Shown in pieces: positions 3,256 to 35,611 of a stretch of DNA of 41,240 bases. Position 1 is the stretch's first letter. Each line of letters opens with the position of its first letter. A program made the position numbers and the translations under genes. The notes beneath the pieces were generated by a model, which did not search any database, had not been told where the DNA came from, and worked only from the letters and a program-made list of their open reading frames with translations. This stretch comes from a virus (lineage: Duplodnaviria; Heunggongvirae; Uroviricota; Caudoviricetes), in the IMG/VR virus record IMGVR_UViG_2541047725_000010. The stretch is one strand, 5' to 3'.

Positions 3256-5862
3256 TTATTTCCTGCAAACTCCAGATGATGTTAATCCATCAAAAATAAC
3301 CTGCACTCTGGCAATAACAACATCAACTCCAGAAGTCGTTTCACTTGCATAACCAAGTTTTATTTTAGATACAATATCCTGAGTAAGTTCAGATATTTCA
3401 GTTTCTGCAATGTTACCAGAGGCCATGTGATTATCGTATGCCATAGAATGAATTCCATTATTGACATCGATTGAACTAGTATGTTTGTGAAAAATAGATG
3501 GGTTTACCTGAAACGAATTTGAACCGATAAGATCAGAAGATACTCCATTCATCACTGCAGTACAGCGTGGAATATTATTATCGGTTATTGTCATATGCAG
3601 ACGGTTACCAGTTAACCCCTCACCAAGTGTGACATAATACGCCAATTCTCCACCTGCATATTGTTTCCCCTCAACAATAACAGTAATCCCTCTTAATTTC
3701 TGATTAGCTAGCAAAAACTTATTACTGTCTATATAGCATTTATTTGCGGAACCAAAAACAGCCCCTTCTAAAATATCTGATGAATAGGAATAAATAAGGT
3801 CACCAGAAACAAAGGAAAGAATATCAGATACGTTTCCTTTTTTAGATAAGTTGGGAGAATAGCTATTAACTATTTCATATTGTCCTGTGATAAAATCAAG
3901 GTAAACGCCATCAGTTTTCATCTCTTTAAAGAAAATGCTATTAAAGCATCCATCAAGAACCGGTGGATATATTCTAGAGCTTGCATAAGCTGTTGGGTGA
4001 TTCTTATTATTACCACTACCAGGCGAATAAACATCTTCGTTAGTCATTGACTTTTTAAGCTTAACAGGAATCATCGGCTGCATATCAATTTTGCAGTTCC
4101 CTGAACCACCGATGCGAGGATAAAATAAACCACCAAACCTTACAATATTACTACTGAATAGTATTTCGTTATCGTTAAGTGTTATCTCAACGAAGTTTCC
4201 AATAAGTTTAAATTCAACTGAAAACAAACCAAGTGGAGCAGATAATTTAACAATATTGCGCATAAAAACACCTACAGTCCCTGTTGATGCAGTATAGTGT
4301 GTGGTTTCAAAGGCAGAGCCTGTATATTTCAAGTTAATGAAATTATTATGGTATGAAGACAATTGGAATTGAATCCCAGAACTAAGGATTTCAATATCTA
4401 CAAATTGAATCCTTACGGAGTAAGAATATGATAAATCTTCATATTCATAAGGCAATGTAACATCTTTTGAAATAGTTGCCCTCACATAATTACCAGAAAC
4501 CACATCAACCCCATCACGTACTGCATTAAAGTAACGATTAAAATCAATAAGCCCAGCGCCAACATACTGCGCATATGAACGAGTCCATCCTGCCATTGCG
4601 TTTCGTCCATTCTGAGCTTCTAAACTGCTAAATTCAGAGTCACTTGTGGTACTTGATGGGAGGATATTTGTACAAAAAACAATTTCAGGCATTGAAGTAA
4701 TATCATTCAGTTCAGCCATCAATTTAAAAAAAGTTTTCTGCGGGAAGTTACCAACATCCCAACCATCTCCGTCATTCATGCCAAAAGCAATAATAACAAC
4801 ATCAGGGTTAATATCACGAATGTAATCAATCCAGCGTCTGTTCGTGTCTGAATACCATGGGTACTGTGAGTTATAAGAAGTAATTGCTGGTGTATCTTTT
4901 CCAAGGTCATAGTACCTCATTCCACCAATTGCTCTGTTAAATAAAGTAGAACTTGGGAATTTCTCTTGCAAAACTCTCTTAAGATGAGCGGCAAAAATGC
5001 TTGATCGATCCACTGTGCTTATATTATATGGGGCACTTAAGCTGTCACCAACTAACACTATTTTTGAGTTAGGCCTTGATAATCTCTCAAGTGTTTTAGA
5101 TGTGACTAAACTGCAGGAATTAATGAACTGAGTACTATTTAGCGTCTGTTCAAGTGTATCACCAAATCTGGTACCAACGTATGATGATCCGTTGACACTT
5201 GCTAGCTTAAGGCATAAATCAGCAGTATCTGTAATTGAAAAAATAGGAACAGGACGTCCTAAACTGTCATACCCCTGAATTGAGTTTGCCCTAGAAGATG
5301 CTGATGCCATTTCGCTTACTATCTCAGGGAAGCGGAGTGTTTTAGATATGTTGCTGTTAATAACTCCTTTGATAGATGAGTCTGTATATTTCTTCGTGGA
5401 AGCGTCCTGAGGAAATAATGGATCATCAAGGTTACGAATACGATTGCCGAGTGCATCGTAGTAAGTGGCACTAAATGATGGTTTACGAAGAGCCAGCCGA
5501 GCCATGCTTTTGACTAACTGGATCAGCATCGTTAGCTTATCAAAAGCATCCTCATGCACTTCCGCAAAGAACTTACCCTGATTGCGCAGATCAGTTTCCT
5601 GTGTAACCGGTAGCTCTCGTGATATAGAAATCTTATAGCCATTGGCCAACGCCTTCGACAATATTACATTTCCACCATTGTATCCTCCGGCCCCGGTAAC
5701 TATATAATCAGTATCAAGAGTCAGTACGGTGATATTTTCATGAATATCAACAACCTGCACAATCAAATCAGATTTATTGAAAACCCTAAAGGCATACGGA
5801 AACGATGTCGTAACGCCGTTACCGGTGTATTCGTTGTGGTCAACTTCGGTTGAGACCGTCAT
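3256..5862 (-). CDS. Tailspike / receptor-binding protein with internal GDSL/SGNH esterase domain
   Basis: 868 aa; conserved N-terminal anchor MTVSTEVDHNEYTGNGVTTSFPY; SGNH blocks VLVGDSLS (about 5040-5065), NRAIGG, FGMNDGDG (about 4761-4787); GGAG RBS; distal part visibly AT-richer. Confidence 0.8.
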   Translation of the reverse strand: MTVSTEVDHNEYTGNGVTTSFPYAFRVFNKSDLIVQVVDIHENITVLTLDTDYIVTGAGGYNGGNVILSKALANGYKISISRELPVTQETDLRNQGKFFAEVHEDAFDKLTMLIQLVKSMARLALRKPSFSATYYDALGNRIRNLDDPLFPQDASTKKYTDSSIKGVINSNISKTLRFPEIVSEMASASSRANSIQGYDSLGRPVPIFSITDTADLCLKLASVNGSSYVGTRFGDTLEQTLNSTQFINSCSLVTSKTLERLSRPNSKIVLVGDSLSAPYNISTVDRSSIFAAHLKRVLQEKFPSSTLFNRAIGGMRYYDLGKDTPAITSYNSQYPWYSDTNRRWIDYIRDINPDVVIIAFGMNDGDGWDVGNFPQKTFFKLMAELNDITSMPEIVFCTNILPSSTTSDSEFSSLEAQNGRNAMAGWTRSYAQYVGAGLIDFNRYFNAVRDGVDVVSGNYVRATISKDVTLPYEYEDLSYSYSVRIQFVDIEILSSGIQFQLSSYHNNFINLKYTGSAFETTHYTASTGTVGVFMRNIVKLSAPLGLFSVEFKLIGNFVEITLNDNEILFSSNIVRFGGLFYPRIGGSGNCKIDMQPMIPVKLKKSMTNEDVYSPGSGNNKNHPTAYASSRIYPPVLDGCFNSIFFKEMKTDGVYLDFITGQYEIVNSYSPNLSKKGNVSDILSFVSGDLIYSYSSDILEGAVFGSANKCYIDSNKFLLANQKLRGITVIVEGKQYAGGELAYYVTLGEGLTGNRLHMTITDNNIPRCTAVMNGVSSDLIGSNSFQVNPSIFHKHTSSIDVNNGIHSMAYDNHMASGNIAETEISELTQDIVSKIKLGYASETTSGVDVVIARVQVIFDGLTSSGVCRK

Positions 5863-5965: not shown

Positions 5966-5982
5966 ATTACCTTTATGGTAAT
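5966..5982. promoter_or_regulatory. Operator-like palindrome ATTACC-TTTAT-GGTAAT
   Basis: Perfect inverted half-sites 5 bp apart; one of at least 11 copies of the same motif in intergenic regions. Confidence 0.5.
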
Positions 5983-6362: not shown

Positions 6363-6455
6363 TTTACATCGCACTCCTCTTGTGCCATAGTAATCGGGCA
6401 CTGGCAAAATCCGGTGCCGGGATTGGTCTCCCGGATTACTACAGAGGCACATATG

Positions 6456-6475
6456 CCGCATAAGCGGTTTTTTTT
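6456..6475 (+). terminator. Putative intrinsic terminator after the LexA-controlled small gene
   Basis: Short GC stem CCGC-ataa-GCGG followed by an 8-T run; sits inside a 314-bp hairpin-rich noncoding gap. Confidence 0.4.
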
Positions 6476-6629
6476 ATGTGTAAAGCGCACCTATTCTATG
6501 GTGGGCTGTGTGGGGGCACCGAAAGGTGCGCCGGGTTCCTTTGTAGCCGGTAAGACCAACTCTGCACAGTTCACCACCATCTGATTGGTCTCAGCGGTGG
6601 TGATTAACCTAACTACAAAGGTGATCGCC

Positions 6630-22832: not shown

Positions 22833-23125
22833 TCCTGTTCACTGGCCTCTTTGGCCATCTTCAAATACTGTTCAGGGCAATGCGCCATAACGCGCTGAAA
22901 CAGTTCCAGCGCCAGATTGCGTTGCCCCTCATTAAACGCCATTGCCATAGCGTCCATCGGTGAGATAGCGGAAAACACACGGCCTTTCTCCAGCACCGAC
23001 CAGACAACGCGACGCCCCTGTTCACTGCTCATGACAAAGCGAATGTCATCAATTTCACGCTGCGCCATGTCACGTTGCTTACGGGCGTTTTCTTCTTTCA
23101 GTTGATCGTCTTCGTAATCTGTCAT
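22829..23125 (-). CDS. Hypothetical head-module protein
   Basis: 98 aa; ATGA overlaps with both neighbours. Confidence 0.45.
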   Translation of the reverse strand: MTDYEDDQLKEENARKQRDMAQREIDDIRFVMSSEQGRRVVWSVLEKGRVFSAISPMDAMAMAFNEGQRNLALELFQRVMAHCPEQYLKMAKEASEQE

Positions 23126-24801
23126 TGTGATTGCCCACCCTGACCACTAACTGCATTCGCCATAGCTGACAACACACTCGGATCCGAAGTTTTAGCTTCG
23201 CTTAGCGTCTTGGCACCCTGTGCCGCAGCCATCCCCATCGCCATCATTTGTTGCTGCTGTTGCTGCTGTGCCCGTTGCTGGCGAGCCTGCTCAACCTGTT
23301 CCTGCGGAACAATGACGGTTGGAGACACTCCAGACATATCAGCGAATGCATCGATCGCCTGATCAACGTTGAGTTTGTCGAGAGCTTCTGGTTTCGCTTG
23401 CGCAAGTTGACCAATGAAGTTGACCGTGGATGCCAGACTGGACAGGCCGATAGACTTCTGCGCCTGAGCCATGACGGAAATGTATTCGACCTTCAGGGGC
23501 ATACCTTCCATCGCGTCAGGCGGTGGCGGCAGCATGTTTTTACGCACCATCATCGAGAAAGCGCGGTCAATGAGAGGATTAAGACATTCGTCGTTCAGAC
23601 GCTCCAGAACCGGCCCCAACATCAGAAGTTTTTCTTCTTTCATTTCGATCACCGCTTCAACAGGCATCGAGCGGGTATTGATGTTCTGCAACATCATGAA
23701 CAGATCGACAAAGTAGGCGCTGTTAATGATTTGCCGAGTGTCCTGAATGTCTGCTACCAGATCTGCTGTACTGGGGTTAACCAGATAAGCAGGCCTGAAA
23801 CCATCCTGACCAGTAATCTGATCGATATACGTGATGTCGCCAGGAAGAAGGGAGGCACGCTGATTCTTGAGGGAAGTCGGAGCAACCATCGGCGGATTGG
23901 TGGCTTTATCAATCAACTGCGACTTGCGCTTCTGAAGAAGCTGCAATGCCTTAACAGGTCCAAGCGCCAGCATACCCGGGCATGATGATCCATAAACATC
24001 TTCGCCGTTAACTTCCCAGCGCGGAGCCATAATTGGAAACTCATCGAATCCGGACTCACGCAACAACTTGTCGTTATCGCCACCAACCTCGTAATAAACC
24101 GATTTGAATGGCTTGTTCTTGCTATCCAGCTTCGATGTATCGCGGTCAATGTTCGGGTAAACCGAATGCATCACTTCAATCCACTTCTCGTAGGTGCCGC
24201 TTTCCCACATGCTTTTTACGGATTCGCTGACGTTATTTAGCCCGAACTCCTGAACAAGCTGACGAACAGTCATAGCGAACTTGCGAAAACAGGTGTCCAC
24301 ACTGCCACGAGGTGAGTTAGCTAGGTAGTAACTGCCTATCGGGAATGGCATTGTGCGAATGATGTCCTCGTCATCTTCCAGCACTGCCATTGCACCAGTG
24401 CTGTATGTGCCGAGGCTTCCGTATAACTGCGGCAGCGACTGATAGAGATTCGACTTATTGAACATATCGTTCATGCGGTTCTGCACCGCCTCAAGCCACA
24501 ACTTAACAGGGCCATAATCCATCATTTCAGGATCTGGCGTAGCCAGGCGAAACCACGGACGCGCGGGGCTTGTGATGCCTGACATCATGCCGCTGGCGAG
24601 AGTGCGCGCCGCCATAGTCCCGGTCGAATCAATAATGCGTGTATTGCGTCGATCGTTACGGTTGACCTCAGAAGTCAGAAAGCGGGAACCACGCGGGTTG
24701 ATGTAATCACTCAACTCGCGCCAGTGCGGCTCGAACGACTGACGCTCGCTTTCAAGTTGTGCGAACTGTTTGTTCAATCGCTCTTTAGTTGTTTCCGCCA
24801 T
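23122..24801 (-). CDS. Portal protein
   Basis: 559 aa; position between terminase and scaffold; Gln/Ala-rich C-terminus; GGAG RBS. Confidence 0.75.
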   Translation of the reverse strand: MAETTKERLNKQFAQLESERQSFEPHWRELSDYINPRGSRFLTSEVNRNDRRNTRIIDSTGTMAARTLASGMMSGITSPARPWFRLATPDPEMMDYGPVKLWLEAVQNRMNDMFNKSNLYQSLPQLYGSLGTYSTGAMAVLEDDEDIIRTMPFPIGSYYLANSPRGSVDTCFRKFAMTVRQLVQEFGLNNVSESVKSMWESGTYEKWIEVMHSVYPNIDRDTSKLDSKNKPFKSVYYEVGGDNDKLLRESGFDEFPIMAPRWEVNGEDVYGSSCPGMLALGPVKALQLLQKRKSQLIDKATNPPMVAPTSLKNQRASLLPGDITYIDQITGQDGFRPAYLVNPSTADLVADIQDTRQIINSAYFVDLFMMLQNINTRSMPVEAVIEMKEEKLLMLGPVLERLNDECLNPLIDRAFSMMVRKNMLPPPPDAMEGMPLKVEYISVMAQAQKSIGLSSLASTVNFIGQLAQAKPEALDKLNVDQAIDAFADMSGVSPTVIVPQEQVEQARQQRAQQQQQQQMMAMGMAAAQGAKTLSEAKTSDPSVLSAMANAVSGQGGQSQ

Positions 24802-24815
24802 TTCAATGACTCCGG

Positions 24816-25022
24816 TTACTGACCAAGCAGCGTTTTACCGCTGGTATTAGCGGTTGATGTGTCGCCCTGAGAACCGGTAAGCAGCGTAGAACTACGACCA
24901 GCAGCAGCGCGACGGCGACGAGTTTCTTCGTCGCGGGCATCAACAACGGCGGCATCCTGCTCCTGTGGTGCTGCCTGAACTTCTGGTGTTGCAGGCACTG
25001 ATGGTGAGCTACCCATGCACAT
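24816..25022 (-). CDS. Small hydrophilic protein upstream of portal
   Basis: 68 aa; GGAG RBS; its initiation region CGGAGTCATTGA-N-ATG is nearly identical to that of the portal gene. Confidence 0.4.
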   Translation of the reverse strand: MCMGSSPSVPATPEVQAAPQEQDAAVVDARDEETRRRRAAAGRSSTLLTGSQGDTSTANTSGKTLLGQ

Positions 25023-25111
25023 ATCAATGACTCCGTACGCAATTAAATTATTACCAATTTAACCACATATGATTTATTTATCGTAGATAGTTGACATTTA
25101 ACGCACGAATT

Positions 25112-25128
25112 ATTACCTTTCAGGTAAC
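25112..25128. promoter_or_regulatory. Operator-like palindrome ATTACC-TTTCA-GGTAAC
   Basis: Upstream of the head operon; a TTGACA hexamer lies at 25091-25096. Confidence 0.45.
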
Positions 25129-25449
25129 CAAAGAGTTCATTCCGGTTACTAACCTGACTGGCTTGTCGTTAAATTGAACAGGTGGAGTGAGCTTTTATTT
25201 TGAGCAGTACGGCGTATGGCACATGCGCCGATAGCGGTCTGGATACGTTTAAGGGGCACCCTCCCTTGCTCGGGCAAACGAACCAGGTAGCCGGAATGTG
25301 CAAGTCGAGCGGTTTTATTCCGCGCACGGGGATTCACCATCCCGGCGATTCGGTGTGACGCCTCGGAAGAGACGAGGGTACAACGATGAGAGCATTTATG
25401 GAGCCGCGACAAAGTGTGGCGCCTTAACAGGCTAAGTGCTCTCAGCGTT

Positions 25450-25526
25450 GTGGCATTAGCTCAGTTGGACAGAGCAACCGCCTTCTAAGCGGTTGGTCGC
25501 AGGTTCGAATCCTGCATGCCACGCCA
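25450..25526 (+). tRNA. tRNA-Arg, anticodon UCU (phage-encoded)
   Basis: Hand-folded cloverleaf: 7-bp acceptor GTGGCAT/ATGCCAC, D-stem GCTC/GAGC, anticodon stem ACCGC/GCGGT with loop CTTCTAA, T-stem GCAGG/CCTGC with GGTTCGAATCC, discriminator G and encoded CCA. Confidence 0.85.
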
Positions 25527-25569
25527 GAATCACGCCTAAGGACCGTGATGCCAGAAGTTCCAGGTGCTT

Positions 25570-25611
25570 GGCGGTGATGCTTTCCCTTGAAGGACTATCA
25601 CCGCCCTTTTT
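25570..25611 (+). terminator. Hairpin plus T-run downstream of the tRNA
   Basis: GGCGGTGAT...ATCACCGCC 9-bp stem with large loop, then CTTTTTA. Confidence 0.35.
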
Positions 25612-25689
25612 ACAGCAGGACGCCATTGCGATGACTTCATGCTGTAAACCAGTACAGCCACGGAAGGCATAACTCATTGCTTCCAGTTC

Positions 25690-25712
25690 GCCCACTTCAG
25701 TGGGCTTTTTTT
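25690..25712 (+). terminator. Intrinsic terminator
   Basis: GCCCAC-TTCA-GTGGGC followed by TTTTTTT. Confidence 0.6.
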
Positions 25713-25725
25713 CTAGTGACTACTG

Positions 25726-25742
25726 ATTACCTTATGGGTAAT
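25726..25742. promoter_or_regulatory. Operator-like palindrome ATTACC-TTATG-GGTAAT overlapping a candidate promoter
   Basis: 32 bp upstream of ATG 25774; TAATAT -10-like hexamer at 25739-25744. Confidence 0.5.
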
Positions 25743-25773
25743 ATACTGCAAACTAATAACACAAGGCCGTGAC

Positions 25774-26664
25774 ATGCTTGACTTCATCCGTGACATTTAC
25801 TCCTCTTTCCGCCAAGCATCTCTTGAGCGGGTGAAAAGCCCGTTCCTTGGGGCATTTGTTTTTTCCTGGCTTTGCTTTAATTGGCAGATGTTAGCAATTC
25901 TATTTTTTAGTTCTAAGGATATTGAAAAGCGCCTTGCTATTATTAATGGCTCTTTCGGCATCGTCAGCTTTTTAATTGCGCCAATATGCACTACAGCATT
26001 GATAGTTATCCTTTTACCGCAAATTAATAAATTGATTACAATAATACAAGATAAACCTAACTCAGACACAATTGAAATGAGCCTTGCATCTAAAATAAAG
26101 ATCGCCGAACTGCAGCAACTATTAGCAGAAAATGAAGCAAGAAAGAAACTTGCTGATAAAAAAGAAGAACGCTTCATTGAAGAGAATATTATTTCAATAA
26201 AAAAAGACCATGAAAAAGCAATAGATAACCTTAAAGACAAAGAAAGTAAAATCTCAAATCTCACGGACACAATAACTGAACTTCAGAGCAAACTGGTTAA
26301 AGCTGAGGCCACTCTCAAAGTTGAACAGGAGTCAAGATCCCAAGTGCAGAATGAATTGATTATTGAAAAAGAGAACAAGCGGAAATTAGAAGACAACATT
26401 CTGCACCTTAATTTAAGTTTAAAAAAAAACCAATCAGAATTGGCCATTGCAAAAGAAGCCTATGATAATACCTTGATGGCTTATAATGAACTTAACACAA
26501 CATTAAAAAAAGCAGAAAGCTCAATAATAAACTTCAATGCTAACTTTCCTTTTTTAACTGACATAAATAACAGCACCCCAAATACATACTTAAAAATAAA
26601 TAAAAATGCATGGGAGCATTTAGTTAGTTTAAATTTAAGTCTAAAGGAGAAAATACAAAAATAA
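25774..26664 (+). CDS. Membrane-anchored coiled-coil protein (cargo gene, function unknown)
   Basis: 296 aa; two N-terminal TM helices then about 200 aa of heptad-like Lys/Glu/Leu-rich sequence; very AT-rich; opposite strand to the flanking late genes. Confidence 0.6.
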   Translation: MLDFIRDIYSSFRQASLERVKSPFLGAFVFSWLCFNWQMLAILFFSSKDIEKRLAIINGSFGIVSFLIAPICTTALIVILLPQINKLITIIQDKPNSDTIEMSLASKIKIAELQQLLAENEARKKLADKKEERFIEENIISIKKDHEKAIDNLKDKESKISNLTDTITELQSKLVKAEATLKVEQESRSQVQNELIIEKENKRKLEDNILHLNLSLKKNQSELAIAKEAYDNTLMAYNELNTTLKKAESSIINFNANFPFLTDINNSTPNTYLKINKNAWEHLVSLNLSLKEKIQK

Positions 26665-26687: not shown

Positions 26688-28157
26688 TTACTCATACGGG
26701 TCATAATCTATTATAGCCCTGCCCTGCTGCTGCCGTGGGTCATTAGTTTTCTTGGCTACCGGGAACGCAAACGTCAGCAGTAGCGCATCGCCTTTACCAG
26801 GTGAACGCCCAAGTCGTTCTTTGATATCTTCCTTCGGTTCGATAACGATTTTACCGTCCACGCGAACTTTGTACTCTGCCGCAGACAGATCGTCCGCTGT
26901 TTCCTGGTCATCCAGCATCCCGCCCAACCTCAGCCATGTCTTGCATGAGTTGAACATCTCCCCGCGCTTGTTGAGCATCTGAGGGTCAGTAGACGCGCCG
27001 CCGAACGGAACAAGTTGCCAAGTACGCCCCCAGCCATCACCGATTGACTTCAAACCGGTTCCGTAACCGAAGTCGATGAACACCGCGTCAGCCTGATACT
27101 GGTCTTCAAAGTCAGCGATACGCTTCGCCATAATCAGATCGTCAGTGGTCTTGTTGCCAGTCCACAGCACCTTACTGTGCAGCCCCTGCCGCAGGTATAT
27201 CACAGCGTCATCAACACCGGAGTATGCCGGGTCAACGCCGATTATCACCGGAGCATGTGCCACCTGCGCAGCGGTTACCACCCGTTTCATTGCCTCGTCA
27301 GTAAGACCGGTAGGGATAAACTGCAATTCAGATGCATCCGGGAATATGCCGCGCACACGGATTTTAACGAAGTCGCTGTCTTCCCCGTAGTCATCAACCC
27401 ATTTCTGCAACTGCTGTTTGTTAGTGCCTTCCACCGTCCGGCTGTCAATCTGCGCAGTTTTCCAGCGGTGTTTATATTTGCGGAAACATTCGCGGAAACG
27501 CCCGGTATTACGCGTCGGGTTCCCGAACGCCACCCAGATGATTTCGGTGTCTTCGTCCGTCAGCGCACCCTCTGCTACATCCCACACCAGATCGGCAATG
27601 TTGGATGCTTCGTCGAAAACCACGATGATGCGTTTGCGCTCGTTGTGTAGTCCGGCGAATGCCTCAGTGTTGTGCTCAGACCAGGGGATTGCGTCAGCTC
27701 GCCACCGCTTGTCGTGCCCAGGATCATTGCTGTACATCGCGGTAGCGGTACAGGTAAACCAGTCTTTCGTGATGGCAAGGTTCGACCACTTGATAATTTC
27801 CGGCCAGGTCTTCGTTCGTAGCTGGTTGTCGGTGTTGGCGGTCACCACGACCTTACAATCCTCGCAAGTGGACATGCCCCAGTTGATCAGCATTGAGATG
27901 AATGCGGATTTACCAATACCGTGACCAGAAGCGCGTGCCAGCATAAGCGGCTGATAGCGCGTCTCTGGATTCTGCAGGTGATCACGTATCTCTCGGAACG
28001 CATCGGCCTGCCACTGACGTGGACCGGTAGCATGTGCCAGTTCAGTCCCCTCTTCCCCCCAAGGGAACGCATAGAGGGCATAGCCAAGCGGATCGTGAGT
28101 GAACCCTGCAATATCTTCGATTAACTGCTCTTCAGGAGATAACGCTGCATCTGTCAC
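26688..28157 (-). CDS. Terminase large subunit
   Basis: 489 aa; ATPase then nuclease domain order; upstream of portal; overlaps terminase small. Confidence 0.8.
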   Translation of the reverse strand: MTDAALSPEEQLIEDIAGFTHDPLGYALYAFPWGEEGTELAHATGPRQWQADAFREIRDHLQNPETRYQPLMLARASGHGIGKSAFISMLINWGMSTCEDCKVVVTANTDNQLRTKTWPEIIKWSNLAITKDWFTCTATAMYSNDPGHDKRWRADAIPWSEHNTEAFAGLHNERKRIIVVFDEASNIADLVWDVAEGALTDEDTEIIWVAFGNPTRNTGRFRECFRKYKHRWKTAQIDSRTVEGTNKQQLQKWVDDYGEDSDFVKIRVRGIFPDASELQFIPTGLTDEAMKRVVTAAQVAHAPVIIGVDPAYSGVDDAVIYLRQGLHSKVLWTGNKTTDDLIMAKRIADFEDQYQADAVFIDFGYGTGLKSIGDGWGRTWQLVPFGGASTDPQMLNKRGEMFNSCKTWLRLGGMLDDQETADDLSAAEYKVRVDGKIVIEPKEDIKERLGRSPGKGDALLLTFAFPVAKKTNDPRQQQGRAIIDYDPYE

Positions 28158-34570: not shown

Positions 34571-34587
34571 ATTACCTTTGAGGTGCG
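34571..34587. promoter_or_regulatory. Degenerate operator-like site ATTACC-TTTGA-GGTGCG
   Basis: One perfect and one degenerate half-site upstream of gene 34291-34554. Confidence 0.3.
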
Positions 34588-34641
34588 AATAGATATGAAA
34601 AGACCGCCGGGTGGCGGTCTACAGAGGGTTGTGGCTGGATA

Positions 34642-34872
34642 TCATGAGTAGAAGAAGTATGCCAGTTCTGCTTTTGAGCGCAGCCATTGTCTTGTTTTAC
34701 AGGCTTTAAAAAGCCCATTCATCAATACTTTACCTGGCATTTTGCGCTTACCTGTTAAGTGAGTCTGGATATAGTGACTCGTCGTTCCGGCTTCCTGTGC
34801 GAAGGCTTCACGCTCATCCGGAGTAAGTGCAAGCCAGTGCTTTTTGAAATCGAAATGTCCGTTATCGCTCAT
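34642..34872 (-). CDS. Cro-like HTH transcriptional regulator
   Basis: 76 aa; first gene of the minus-strand early operon, divergent from the repressor-like gene; HTH-like segment. Confidence 0.55.
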   Translation of the reverse strand: MSDNGHFDFKKHWLALTPDEREAFAQEAGTTSHYIQTHLTGKRKMPGKVLMNGLFKACKTRQWLRSKAELAYFFYS

Positions 34873-34955
34873 AGCTATTGCCTGATATTTATTTCAGATA
34901 ATAAATATTCACCCATAAGGTAACAAAAATCAAGGATAGTTACCTATGGGGTGCA

Positions 34956-34972
34956 TTTACCTGTTGGGTAAT
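34956..34972. promoter_or_regulatory. Operator-like palindrome TTTACC-TGTTG-GGTAAT in the divergent immunity region
   Basis: Within the 154-bp gap between the cro-like and repressor-like genes; a second inverted pair GGTAAC...GTTACC lies at 34919-34944. Confidence 0.5.
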
Positions 34973-35026: not shown

Positions 35027-35611
35027 ATGAAAAGTATCCAGGACGTCCGCAGGCAAAATCTCAACGACTTGATCGACCGTGAATTCAATGGTGTTCAGAC
35101 GCGGATGGCAGAAAAACTTGGAACTCAGGCAAATCTGGTAAACCGCTGGGCTCTTGGCAAGAAGGTTATCGGCGACCAGGTTGCGCGAAAAATTGAAGCT
35201 GCCGCCAATAAACCCCGTAACTGGCTTGATATCGATCGCTCGCTTTCTCAGGAAGGTTTTCAGCCTGTCGGCCCAAGCGACATTGGTCAGCTGGCGGCTC
35301 ACAACCTGGAACGCTGGATGAGCGAAAGCCGCGACCTTTCAACACAGGGAAAACTTCACCGCGCATCCGGCGTCGCCCAGGTGACAATCAGCCGCCTGTT
35401 AAACAATGAGGTCAGCGTTTCCATTTCCACCCTGGAGAATGTTGCATCCGCATTCGGGCGTCACGGCTATGAATTACTGATTCACCCGCACGACCCTGCG
35501 ACCATCAACTATGACCGCTCGCGCTACGCATTGTTACCCGAAACCGAGAAAGCAAAGATCGAAAGTTACATTGAATTTGTCATCAACCAGAACGAAAAAA
35601 ACAAACAATAA
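35027..35611 (+). CDS. Repressor-like regulator with two HTH domains, no recognisable S24 peptidase domain
   Basis: 194 aa; two HTH-like segments (GVQTRMAEKLGTQANLVNRW and ASGVAQVTISRLLNNEVSVS); divergent from the cro-like gene. Confidence 0.6.
   Translation: MKSIQDVRRQNLNDLIDREFNGVQTRMAEKLGTQANLVNRWALGKKVIGDQVARKIEAAANKPRNWLDIDRSLSQEGFQPVGPSDIGQLAAHNLERWMSESRDLSTQGKLHRASGVAQVTISRLLNNEVSVSISTLENVASAFGRHGYELLIHPHDPATINYDRSRYALLPETEKAKIESYIEFVINQNEKNKQ

Follow-up and report, generated by a model that had tools for sequence, protein, structure and literature searches.

Complex RNAs encoded by phages and prophages, such as GOLLD, ROOL and the stable RNA species 1 and 2 of T4, are often located beside co-expressed transfer RNA (tRNA) genes. 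The 5′ leaders of all pre-tRNAs are processed by RNase P, which likewise matures the C4 RNA of P1 and P7, and in MALAT1/mascRNA a tRNA-like fold is used as a handle for 3′-end processing. Among the put RNAs of phages HK022 and HK639, HK022 putL is placed just after an early promoter (PMC9378689). Lambdoid phages that lack N are acknowledged in the literature, with their antitermination unexplained (PMC12315714). Here, we describe a non-coding unit in a 41,240-nucleotide (nt) stretch of viral DNA (IMG/VR record IMGVR_UViG_2541047725_000010; hereafter the window), which belongs to a phiV10/epsilon15-like podovirus (Uetakevirus) and is 98.7% identical to phiV10 across 24800–25712. Positions 25091–25712 of the + strand form one repressor-controlled, early and purely non-coding unit that runs from promoter to terminator and contains, in order, a promoter with an operator, a leader hairpin (P0), a structured RNA with helices P1–P6, tRNA-Arg(UCU) and two terminator-ended trailers that resemble small RNAs (sRNAs).

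With put, the unit shares a structured RNA placed after a repressor-controlled early promoter with a terminator next, residence in temperate phages without annotated N, and the lack of a dedicated protein partner. It differs in build (six helices plus a pseudoknot in about 245 nt, against two stem-loops in about 70–126 nt), in copy number (a single copy, whereas HK022 has both putL and putR) and in abundance (at least 88 phage records and about 20% of Escherichia coli genomes, whereas BLAST with HK022 putL returned 21 phage records, none of them with the element). Unlike put, it is also joined to a tRNA, or to a slot domain in the place of one, and to sRNA-like modules, and in the window it stands alone as a unit. 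The likeness to GOLLD and ROOL lies in its phage or prophage location and in its proximity to tRNA genes: 47 of 152 copies have a directly adjacent tRNA and the other 105 have none. The element is much smaller than either, and is found in phages of Gammaproteobacteria under an operator-controlled early promoter; the GOLLD and ROOL models of Rfam gave no match at E ≤ 10 in 24700–26000 and none at the gathering score in the window and 12 loci.

Architecture and covariation of the structured RNA

The structured RNA (25205–25450, +) has a conserved core at 25205–25377, defined by alignment A3, pair counts and a covariance model. P1 (25210–25218/25222–25230) carries a GCA triloop and is followed by the bipartite P2, in which P2a (25235–25238/25290–25293) continues into P2b (25239–25242/25283–25286) and a variable distal hairpin. 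The core also holds a nearly invariant 19-mer, GGUAGCCGGAAUGUGCAAG (25286–25304), and a variable hairpin, P3 (about 25306–25325). P4 (25329–25332/25340–25343) presents the loop sequence CACC (25335–25338), which forms a pseudoknot with GGUG (25352–25355), and P5 (25361–25365/25373–25377) has the loop GAAGAGA. P6 (25381–25396/25435–25450) is a long hairpin with a tip that is hypervariable among phages, and pairing in it extends as far as nucleotide +1 of the tRNA. Upstream of the core, the leader hairpin P0 (25131–25196, +) is based on a single-sequence fold of 25127–25209 and has a P6-like sequence. Variants of the 19-mer are few and consist of single changes, three of which convert the P2a U·G pair to U–A; this near-constancy indicates that the block is under strong purifying selection.

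Pairing was evaluated in alignment A3, which holds 30 non-redundant copies (<97% identity) with the hypervariable P6 tip masked with N and with loci L036, L065 and L144 left out. The pair model comprises 46 pairs in P1, P2a, P2b, P4, P5, P6 and the pseudoknot. Standard pairs occupy 96.2% of the cells, compared with 29.9–43.8% for slid partners and 89.5% for shuffles, and 19 pairs are changed on both sides, compared with 1–6 for slid partners and 9.7 ± 1.6 for shuffles; all five pairing measures exceed every one of 500 shuffles. P6 has 16 pairs, with eight changed on both sides and 94% of cells paired, and shows compensatory variants of the form GAGAGCGCACU/AGUGCGCUC and GAUGAUGGCU/AGUCAUCUUC. 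P5 occurs as CCUCG/CGAGG, CCUGG/CCAGG and GCCGG/CCGGC, and a pair in P2b switches from U–A to C–G (12 versus 18 rows). In the pseudoknot, one pair changes from C–G to A–U in four of the 30 rows (loop AACC, partner GGUU), with zero unpaired cells. The conserved U·G pairs in P1, P2a and P6 would become A·C on the opposite strand, which fixes the RNA strand as +. The fold compared with shuffles gives z = −3.0 for the + strand and z = −1.9 for the − strand, and neighbouring genes point the same way as the RNA: the tRNA in the window, trnI and ban in P1, and cI in cdtI. With a covariance model derived from A3, the window receives 192 bits (E = 2e-62); the model also recovers one copy each in cdtI, SopranoGao and P1, a tandem pair in locus L027 and, in epsilon15, only a 5′ remnant. 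The initial annotation had suggested that a small RNA might lie upstream of the tRNA: a structured RNA is present there, in the form of a pseudoknotted domain of about 245 nt and not of a small regulatory RNA.

Could the conservation instead stem from a gene for a protein, on either strand, or from a site acting at the DNA level? Hypothetical proteins are annotated over the element in a few phage records (mEp460 gp37, mEp390 gp36, Ayreon, JL22 and phiSTEC1575-Stx2k), with coding sequences (CDSs) at 4443–4811 in mEp460 (L173) and 2511–2753 in mEp390 (L007) and some on the opposite strand, and 25043–25449 of the window contains an 87-residue antisense open reading frame (ORF) with a TTG start (25149–25412). 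The ORFs in this region are only short and overlapping, however, as the initial annotation had already judged for the roughly 400 bp before the tRNA, and no reading frame is conserved across 30 diverse homologs, in which the variable segments of P2 and P3 change length freely and span all length classes modulo 3. The antisense ORF, previously described as weak, is thus an artefact. Compensatory changes keep the pairing, including the strand-specific G·U pairs, and a coding or DNA-level origin of the conservation is hardly credible. As the pairs covary and no frame is conserved, the CDSs placed over the structured RNA are probably spurious gene calls.

The junction of several helices, its conserved joining strands and the pseudoknot are features characteristic of aptamers and ribozymes, so that a riboswitch for a metabolite or second messenger, or a self-cleaving ribozyme, in an early leader was also considered. 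GCACAU at the apex of P1 might pair alternatively with AUGUGC in J2/3, although both strings are invariant and offer no covariation test. Against such a function, no expression platform is present in the window (there is no U-tract after P6 and no sequestered start codon, and the tRNA follows directly), the downstream context varies among phages, and no riboswitch or ribozyme of Rfam matches at E ≤ 10. We regard this explanation as very unlikely. With Rfam 15, 24700–26000 matches only the tRNA family plus noise at E ≤ 10, and gathering-level scans of the window and 12 loci return only tRNA, C4 and isrK.

Several local resemblances were examined and rejected. The 3′ strand of P6 (UGCUCUC/UGCUCUUU) resembles boxA of nut sites, but it covaries with its partner and gives way to unrelated sequence in L157. 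CG(N)UAGCGGU is only loosely like the RfaH ops sequence GGCGGTAGCGTG, and the critical position varies. A K-turn at the GUA bulge was discarded as the flanking pairs are canonical and not tandem G·A. A small basic peptide that could be read from GUGGUGAAU in lambdoid copies corresponds to a covarying RNA hairpin, which occurs at that site as GCGCA-GGCUGA-UGCGC, GGCGG-GGCUGA-CCGCC and GCACA-GGCUGA-UGUGC.

Promoter, operator and distribution

The early promoter of the unit (25091–25127, +) consists of a −35 hexamer TTGACA (25091–25096), a 17-nt spacer and a −10 hexamer TACCTT (25114–25119), which would place the transcription start near 25127. A palindrome, TTACCTTTCAGGTAA (25113–25127), overlaps the −10 hexamer. 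Its consensus TTACCT-N3-AGGTAA occurs at 17 sites in the window when up to two mismatches are allowed, compared with 0.96 expected, and none of 100 shuffles reaches 17. Sites are located at 5967, 6347, 7395, 25113, 25727, 32564, 32626, 34572–34971, 35669, 35731 and other positions. They mark at least five regulatory regions, two of them in the locus of the unit, and form four clusters, at an HTH_3 repressor-like gene (35027–35611), at an immI-like region with C4 and isrK, at 25113 and at 25727, and the palindrome is evidently the operator of a phage repressor, for which the gene at 35027–35611 is the candidate. The depositors of epsilon15 annotated a repressor-binding site at the position equivalent to the 25113 palindrome. 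A second operator copy, TTACCTTATGGGTAA (25727–25741, one mismatch), marks the downstream boundary of the non-coding unit; a putative promoter around it, GTGACT-17-TAATAT, may serve the ORF at 25774–26664.

The operator-like palindrome and the TTGACA hexamer of the initial annotation therefore both hold, the latter as part of a TTGACA-17-TACCTT module that is also found 13–131 nt before the structured RNA in unrelated loci. The accompanying proposal that this region may hold the promoter of the head operon is not supported: the 25091 promoter reads the + strand, toward the tRNA and away from the portal and head genes on the − strand, and a consensus scan found no − strand promoter near 25043–25449. 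Most distinct upstream contexts of the element contain a TTGACA or near-TTGACA −35 hexamer and a plausible −10 hexamer 6–130 nt before P1, with the −10 overlapped by operators of differing immunity types. In loci L037, L117 and L138 the −10 ends 6–8 nt before P1, and the RNA would start essentially with P1. The promoter criterion is lax, as 59 of 101 shuffles also score, and the weight therefore rests on the recurrence of a perfect TTGACA and on the operator overlap.

Sensitive BLAST searches showed 25209–25449 to be about 82% identical to the lambdoid phages cdtI, mEp460, 2H10 and Stx2a_1447 and to Stx2c phages, and 25209–25371 to be about 80% identical to P1, P7, D6, SJ46 and RCS47, with shorter matches in Klebsiella phage SopranoGao, Stenotrophomonas phages and mEp390. 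Almost all of the DNA matched by the query 25043–25449 is without an annotated feature. In P1 the element directly follows tRNA-Ile (trnI) and precedes ban, and in cdtI, mEp390, Stx2a_1447 and a Stenotrophomonas phage it lies just 3′ of a cI-like repressor gene in the same orientation. Altogether, the structured RNA is present in at least 88 phage records. Exact matches to the invariant 19-mer GGTAGCCGGAATGTGCAAG occur in at least 120 IMG/VR contigs, and a scan with an 18-mer matched 27 species genomes, with 23 true copies, all in Enterobacterales; the matches in L136, L140, L146 and L156 are chance occurrences in unrelated sequence. The element is carried by 1064 of 5426 complete E. coli genomes (about 20%), with no annotated feature under it among the matches listed, and a second scan with a different conserved block recovered nearly the same loci. 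All contexts examined are phage or prophage, and the family spans temperate podo-, sipho- and myoviruses of Enterobacterales as well as phages isolated on Stenotrophomonas. None of the records examined annotates the element as an RNA, its conserved strings were not found in the open-access papers searched, and the paper on vB_EcoP_ZX5 does not discuss the region.

Some copies are reduced or rearranged. In epsilon15 (L003) only a 56-nt remnant comprising P1 and the start of P2 is found (2291–2346), with no tRNA. As the covariance model detects this 5′ remnant only, epsilon15 has lost the core together with the tRNA. A stretch of epsilon15 annotated as RNaseIII by its depositors is the counterpart of the P0 leader hairpin. 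The IMG/VR contig L027 contains tandem copies at 3940–4159 and 4778–4964 on the same strand, about 800 nt apart, and P6 of the upstream copy seems to contain a large insertion. In P1 (L001), the P6 part of the covariance model scores at 980–1065 (E = 4e-4) and 1207–1298 (E = 3e-3), just after tRNA-Thr in the ban operon; these hairpins may represent a recurrent P6-like module or generic hairpin matches. In SopranoGao (L006, 2432–2900), the core lies 3′ of the lysis genes near a genome end, in a stretch in which no repressor or integrase is annotated, and is followed by a slot domain and then by a 'type C' module (CCCAGACGAUAUCUGAGUGG...GCCGGUGGAAUCCCGGC). This arrangement looks like cassette-type shuffling of RNA modules.

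The tRNA, the slot and the 3′ trailers

The tRNA-Arg(UCU) gene (25450–25526, +; anticodon tct) is the sole tRNA called by ARAGORN in the window and scores 73.3 bits with the Rfam tRNA model (RF00005; gathering score 29), in agreement with the clean fold reported in the initial annotation. Its sequence shows the acceptor stem GUGGCAU/AUGCCAC, discriminator G and an encoded CCA, and the acceptor, anticodon and T arms all form in a single-sequence fold. The identity elements for arginyl-tRNA synthetase, A20 (in GGACA) and the anticodon UCU (C35 and U36), can be read from the sequence. A chromosomal tRNA-Arg present in all 5426 E. coli genomes shares 85.9% identity with the phage tRNA; identical or near-identical copies of the latter carry RefSeq annotation in about 500 E. 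coli genomes, and tRNA-Arg is already annotated in the relatives O157 typing phages 9 and 10, phiv142-3, SPN9TCW and SPC32H/N. Phage argU-like tRNA-Arg(UCU) genes likewise encode a canonical tRNA for host-rare codons. The tRNA is therefore real, already known and ordinary in itself, and what is unusual is its embedding in a conserved non-coding unit.

Codon usage was counted in 46 ORFs picked greedily from the window (12,274 codons). AGA and AGG occur at 6.5 and 4.8 per 1000 codons, corresponding to 10.8% and 7.9% of Arg codons. Codon tables give E. coli K-12 averages of about 2 (AGA) and 1.2 (AGG) per 1000, so that usage in the phage is about three times the E. coli average, with the host figures taken from these tables and not computed here. 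This roughly threefold enrichment is compatible with the supplementation of AGA/AGG decoding proposed previously. Late structural genes, in which AGA and AGG together reach 7.6 per 1000, show less enrichment than early and accessory genes.

The tRNA is located directly 3′ of the element in phiV10-like phages and directly 5′ of it in P1-like phages. Among 97 distinct tails 3′ of P6, 24 are a true tRNA-Arg. The other tails were tested for a closing stem by strict Watson–Crick complementarity with shuffled controls, and 49 of these 73 hold an exact CCACAAC complement to a conserved GUUGUGG within 40–215 nt, compared with 1.0 in shuffles; when G·U pairs were allowed, the test was no better than chance. 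The CCACAAC excess shows that a stem-closed slot domain stands at the position that the acceptor stem of the tRNA takes in the window, and the tRNA is thus one interchangeable filling of this slot. Some slots retain a T-arm right before the 3′ acceptor-like strand (L141 and L077/L132). By analogy with mascRNA and C4, the tRNA or slot abuts the upstream RNA at the point where RNase P would set its end. Unlike in the mascRNA type, ARAGORN recognises no tRNA in most slot domains, and P1 and the 'type C' copies have no slot.

Trailer 1 (25527–25611, +), identified from its sequence and fold, begins with a conserved hairpin, AUCACG (25529–25534)...CGUGAU (25544–25549), which is followed by a single-stranded stretch and by a terminator formed by GGCGGUGAU (25570–25578) and AUCACCGCC (25597–25605) and ending in CUUUUU. 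This AUCACG...CGUGAU hairpin recurs: in the window it comes after the tRNA, in some units that lack a tRNA it comes after the slot, and it is succeeded by a GGCGG...CCGCC-U5 terminator. Trailer 2 (25613–25712, +; fold z = −2.9) was delineated by alignment to RyhB and a terminator scan. Over 13 nt, CAUUGCUUCCAGU (25675–25687), it is identical to the RyhB seed in a local alignment, and it ends in the terminator GCCCAC-UUCA-GUGGGC-UUUUUUU (25690–25712, +). The Rfam RyhB model (RF00057) gives trailer 2 only 16.7 bits (E = 5.1; gathering score 55), and we regard it as a candidate phage-encoded mimic of the RyhB seed. In build (hairpin, single strand, terminator) and in sharing seeds, the trailers are like 3′ETS-leuZ and like RyhB, RprA and RybB. 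They differ in that no module reaches its Rfam gathering score (16.7 bits for trailer 2, with 55 required; 37.4 bits for an RprA-like module in L077, with 70 required) and in that only the portion with seed and terminator is shared.

Related 3′ modules were noticed in other units. One similar to trailer 2 is present in L168. In L077, 5260–5370 resembles the 3′ half of RprA (37.4 bits, E = 0.006; below the Rfam gathering score of 70), and many units end with a near-identical RprA 3′ half (UUGCUGUGUGUAGUCUUUGCCC...terminator), as in L005, L014, L016, L038, L097, L110 and L151; the RprA sequence used for comparison was from PMC7311995. The unit type of cdtI and Stx2c phages ends in GCCACUGCUUUGG and a terminator (2853–2911 in cdtI, L002, with the terminator at 2866–2911). 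This terminal module starts like RybB (GCCACUGCUUU), its first 11 nt being the 5′ seed end of RybB, and has no match in Rfam. The Pas sRNAs (bioRxiv 10.64898/2026.05.13.724894) were set aside, as they belong to a different locus in the late region.

These observations bear on whether the structured RNA might be a passive leader or processing scaffold, with a fold that shields the transcript from Rho and RNases and offers sites for RNases III, P and E to free the cargo. The core lies between two long hairpins, P0 and P6, the epsilon15 annotation calls the P0 region an RNase III site, P6-like hairpins score beside tRNA-Thr in P1, and the scaffold stays constant while the cargo (tRNA, slot or sRNA seeds) varies. 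The constraint nevertheless goes beyond what a scaffold needs, with a 19-nt unpaired and bulged block that is near-invariant in more than 150 copies and a conserved pseudoknot. Moreover, P1 keeps the core without P6, slot or sRNA cargo, and in epsilon15 the core was lost along with the tRNA. We consider a purely passive role improbable.

The unit is part of an insert that consists of the tRNA, the stretch upstream of it and an ORF of 296 residues (25774–26664, +) and is opposite in orientation to the flanking genes, all on the − strand: the portal gene (23122–24801), a small gp3-like gene (24816–25022) and the large terminase gene (26688–28157). The 296-residue ORF matches phrog_13369 (unknown function) and has no match in a Pfam search; by eye, it has a hydrophobic N-terminal stretch and a long, Lys/Glu-rich, coiled-coil-like region. 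The interval between portal and terminase is a variable cargo slot, occupied by other ORFs in epsilon15 and a Klebsiella phage. Elsewhere in the window, isrK (6398–6474, +; 73.7 bits) lies beside C4 antisense RNA (6494–6581, +; 78.6 bits), a pair that constitutes a P1/P22-type immI module and also occurs in the cdtI-type loci L002 and L018.

Possible functions of the unit

Our best guess, to which we give slightly less than an even chance, is that the structured RNA is a stable early RNA released by tRNA processing. When the repressor is inactivated, host RNA polymerase would transcribe the unit, and the RNase P cut at the 5′ end of the tRNA would release the structured RNA with a defined 3′ terminus. 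RNase E or 3′ exonucleases would liberate the tRNA and the trailers, and RNase III may cleave the long hairpins P0 and P6. The tRNA would then supplement decoding of AGA and, less well, AGG; the trailers would work as Hfq-type sRNAs that bear the seeds of host sRNAs; and the released RNA would act, as a stable molecule, on a partner shared by all hosts. A partner common to the hosts is suggested by the near-invariant unpaired nucleotides together with the absence of a co-conserved phage protein. Since RNase P processing is universal for pre-tRNAs, the upstream RNA would necessarily be separated from the tRNA. Release is favoured because the unit in the window is self-contained, with two terminators, a next gene that has its own operator and a convergent arrangement with the terminase gene.

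Several points weigh against this reading. In the SfV-like lambdoid phages cdtI, mEp460, 2H10 and Stx2a_1447 the unit is preceded by P_L and followed by the first early-left ORF, with no further promoter seen in the interval, a layout that suits a role in cis. P1 has neither P6 nor the slot, so that tRNA-mediated release is not universal. The copies were gathered by conserved-block patterns or BLAST, with poor sampling beyond Enterobacterales, and the shuffle control ignores phylogeny, a weakness from which the slid-partner control is free. The stability and the trans-acting role of the structured RNA are purely inferred.

The same lambdoid layout raises a different possibility, namely a put-like, cis-acting antiterminator, in which the nascent RNA would make its own RNA polymerase resistant to terminators and so provide delayed-early expression in N-less phages. 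Like putL, the element begins close behind an early promoter under repressor control, at a distance of 6–130 nt in most contexts, with the copies in L037, L117 and L138 starting essentially at +1. In cdtI, mEp460, 2H10 and Stx2a_1447 the order is cI, a terminator, P_L with its operator, the unit with its strong terminator and the first early-left ORF; N is not annotated in these four phages, a statement that reflects annotation and not a homology search for N. HK022 putL also has a terminator-like hairpin directly after it in its sequence, and near-invariant unpaired nucleotides across hosts would fit a universal machine such as RNA polymerase.

Homology to put was not detected, however: the nhmmer profile of the element had no match to HK639 putL at E ≤ 100, and the covariance model had none in the HK022 (L004) and HK639 (L158) regions at E ≤ 10. 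The short strings CGGCG...CAUGCGYCG and GG(C)AAUG(C)UGC, which are shared with HK022/HK639 putL, are an unproven resemblance, given that neither the profile hidden Markov model nor the covariance model detects put. The element is about three times the size of put and lacks a putR-like second copy, with one copy per genome. In the window, the unit closes with two terminators, the next gene is under its own operator-controlled promoter, and read-through would proceed antisense into the terminase gene. The sRNA-like 3′ modules require termination for their 3′ ends. The ban promoters of P1 lie 2.3 kb away from the element, with no terminator detected ahead of ban. The absence of N from the element-bearing phages is likewise a matter of annotation only. 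We therefore rate a put-like function as possible but on the unlikely side. In its broader form, the idea is that the RNA at 25205–25450 founds a new, abundant class of phage RNA that, as lytic growth begins, reprograms on its own some conserved machinery of the host, concretely as a second, structurally unrelated family of RNA-only antiterminators; this proposal, too, we hold as a doubtful one. Release of the RNA by tRNA processing, which we prefer, and a put-like role are not mutually exclusive and may coexist across contexts.

What is not routine in the unit is the upstream RNA, which is supported by covariation, pseudoknotted and not annotated as an RNA, and which is present in the well-studied phage P1 and in Shiga-toxin phages; several hypothetical proteins annotated over the region are probably spurious. 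As a stable trans-acting RNA, the element would give phages a new means of acting on a host target that is conserved. As a put-like antiterminator, it would open the long-standing problem of how N-less lambdoid phages achieve early antitermination to direct tests, with relevance to Stx2c and some Stx2a phages, in which early transcription bears on toxin production. A second RNA-only antiterminator family, if true, would explain delayed-early expression in N-less lambdoid phages, with the tRNA or its mimic and the seed mimics as cargo. Either way, the unit represents a compact packaging of non-coding cargo: a structured RNA, a tRNA or its mimic, and trailers with RyhB-, RprA- and RybB-like seeds.

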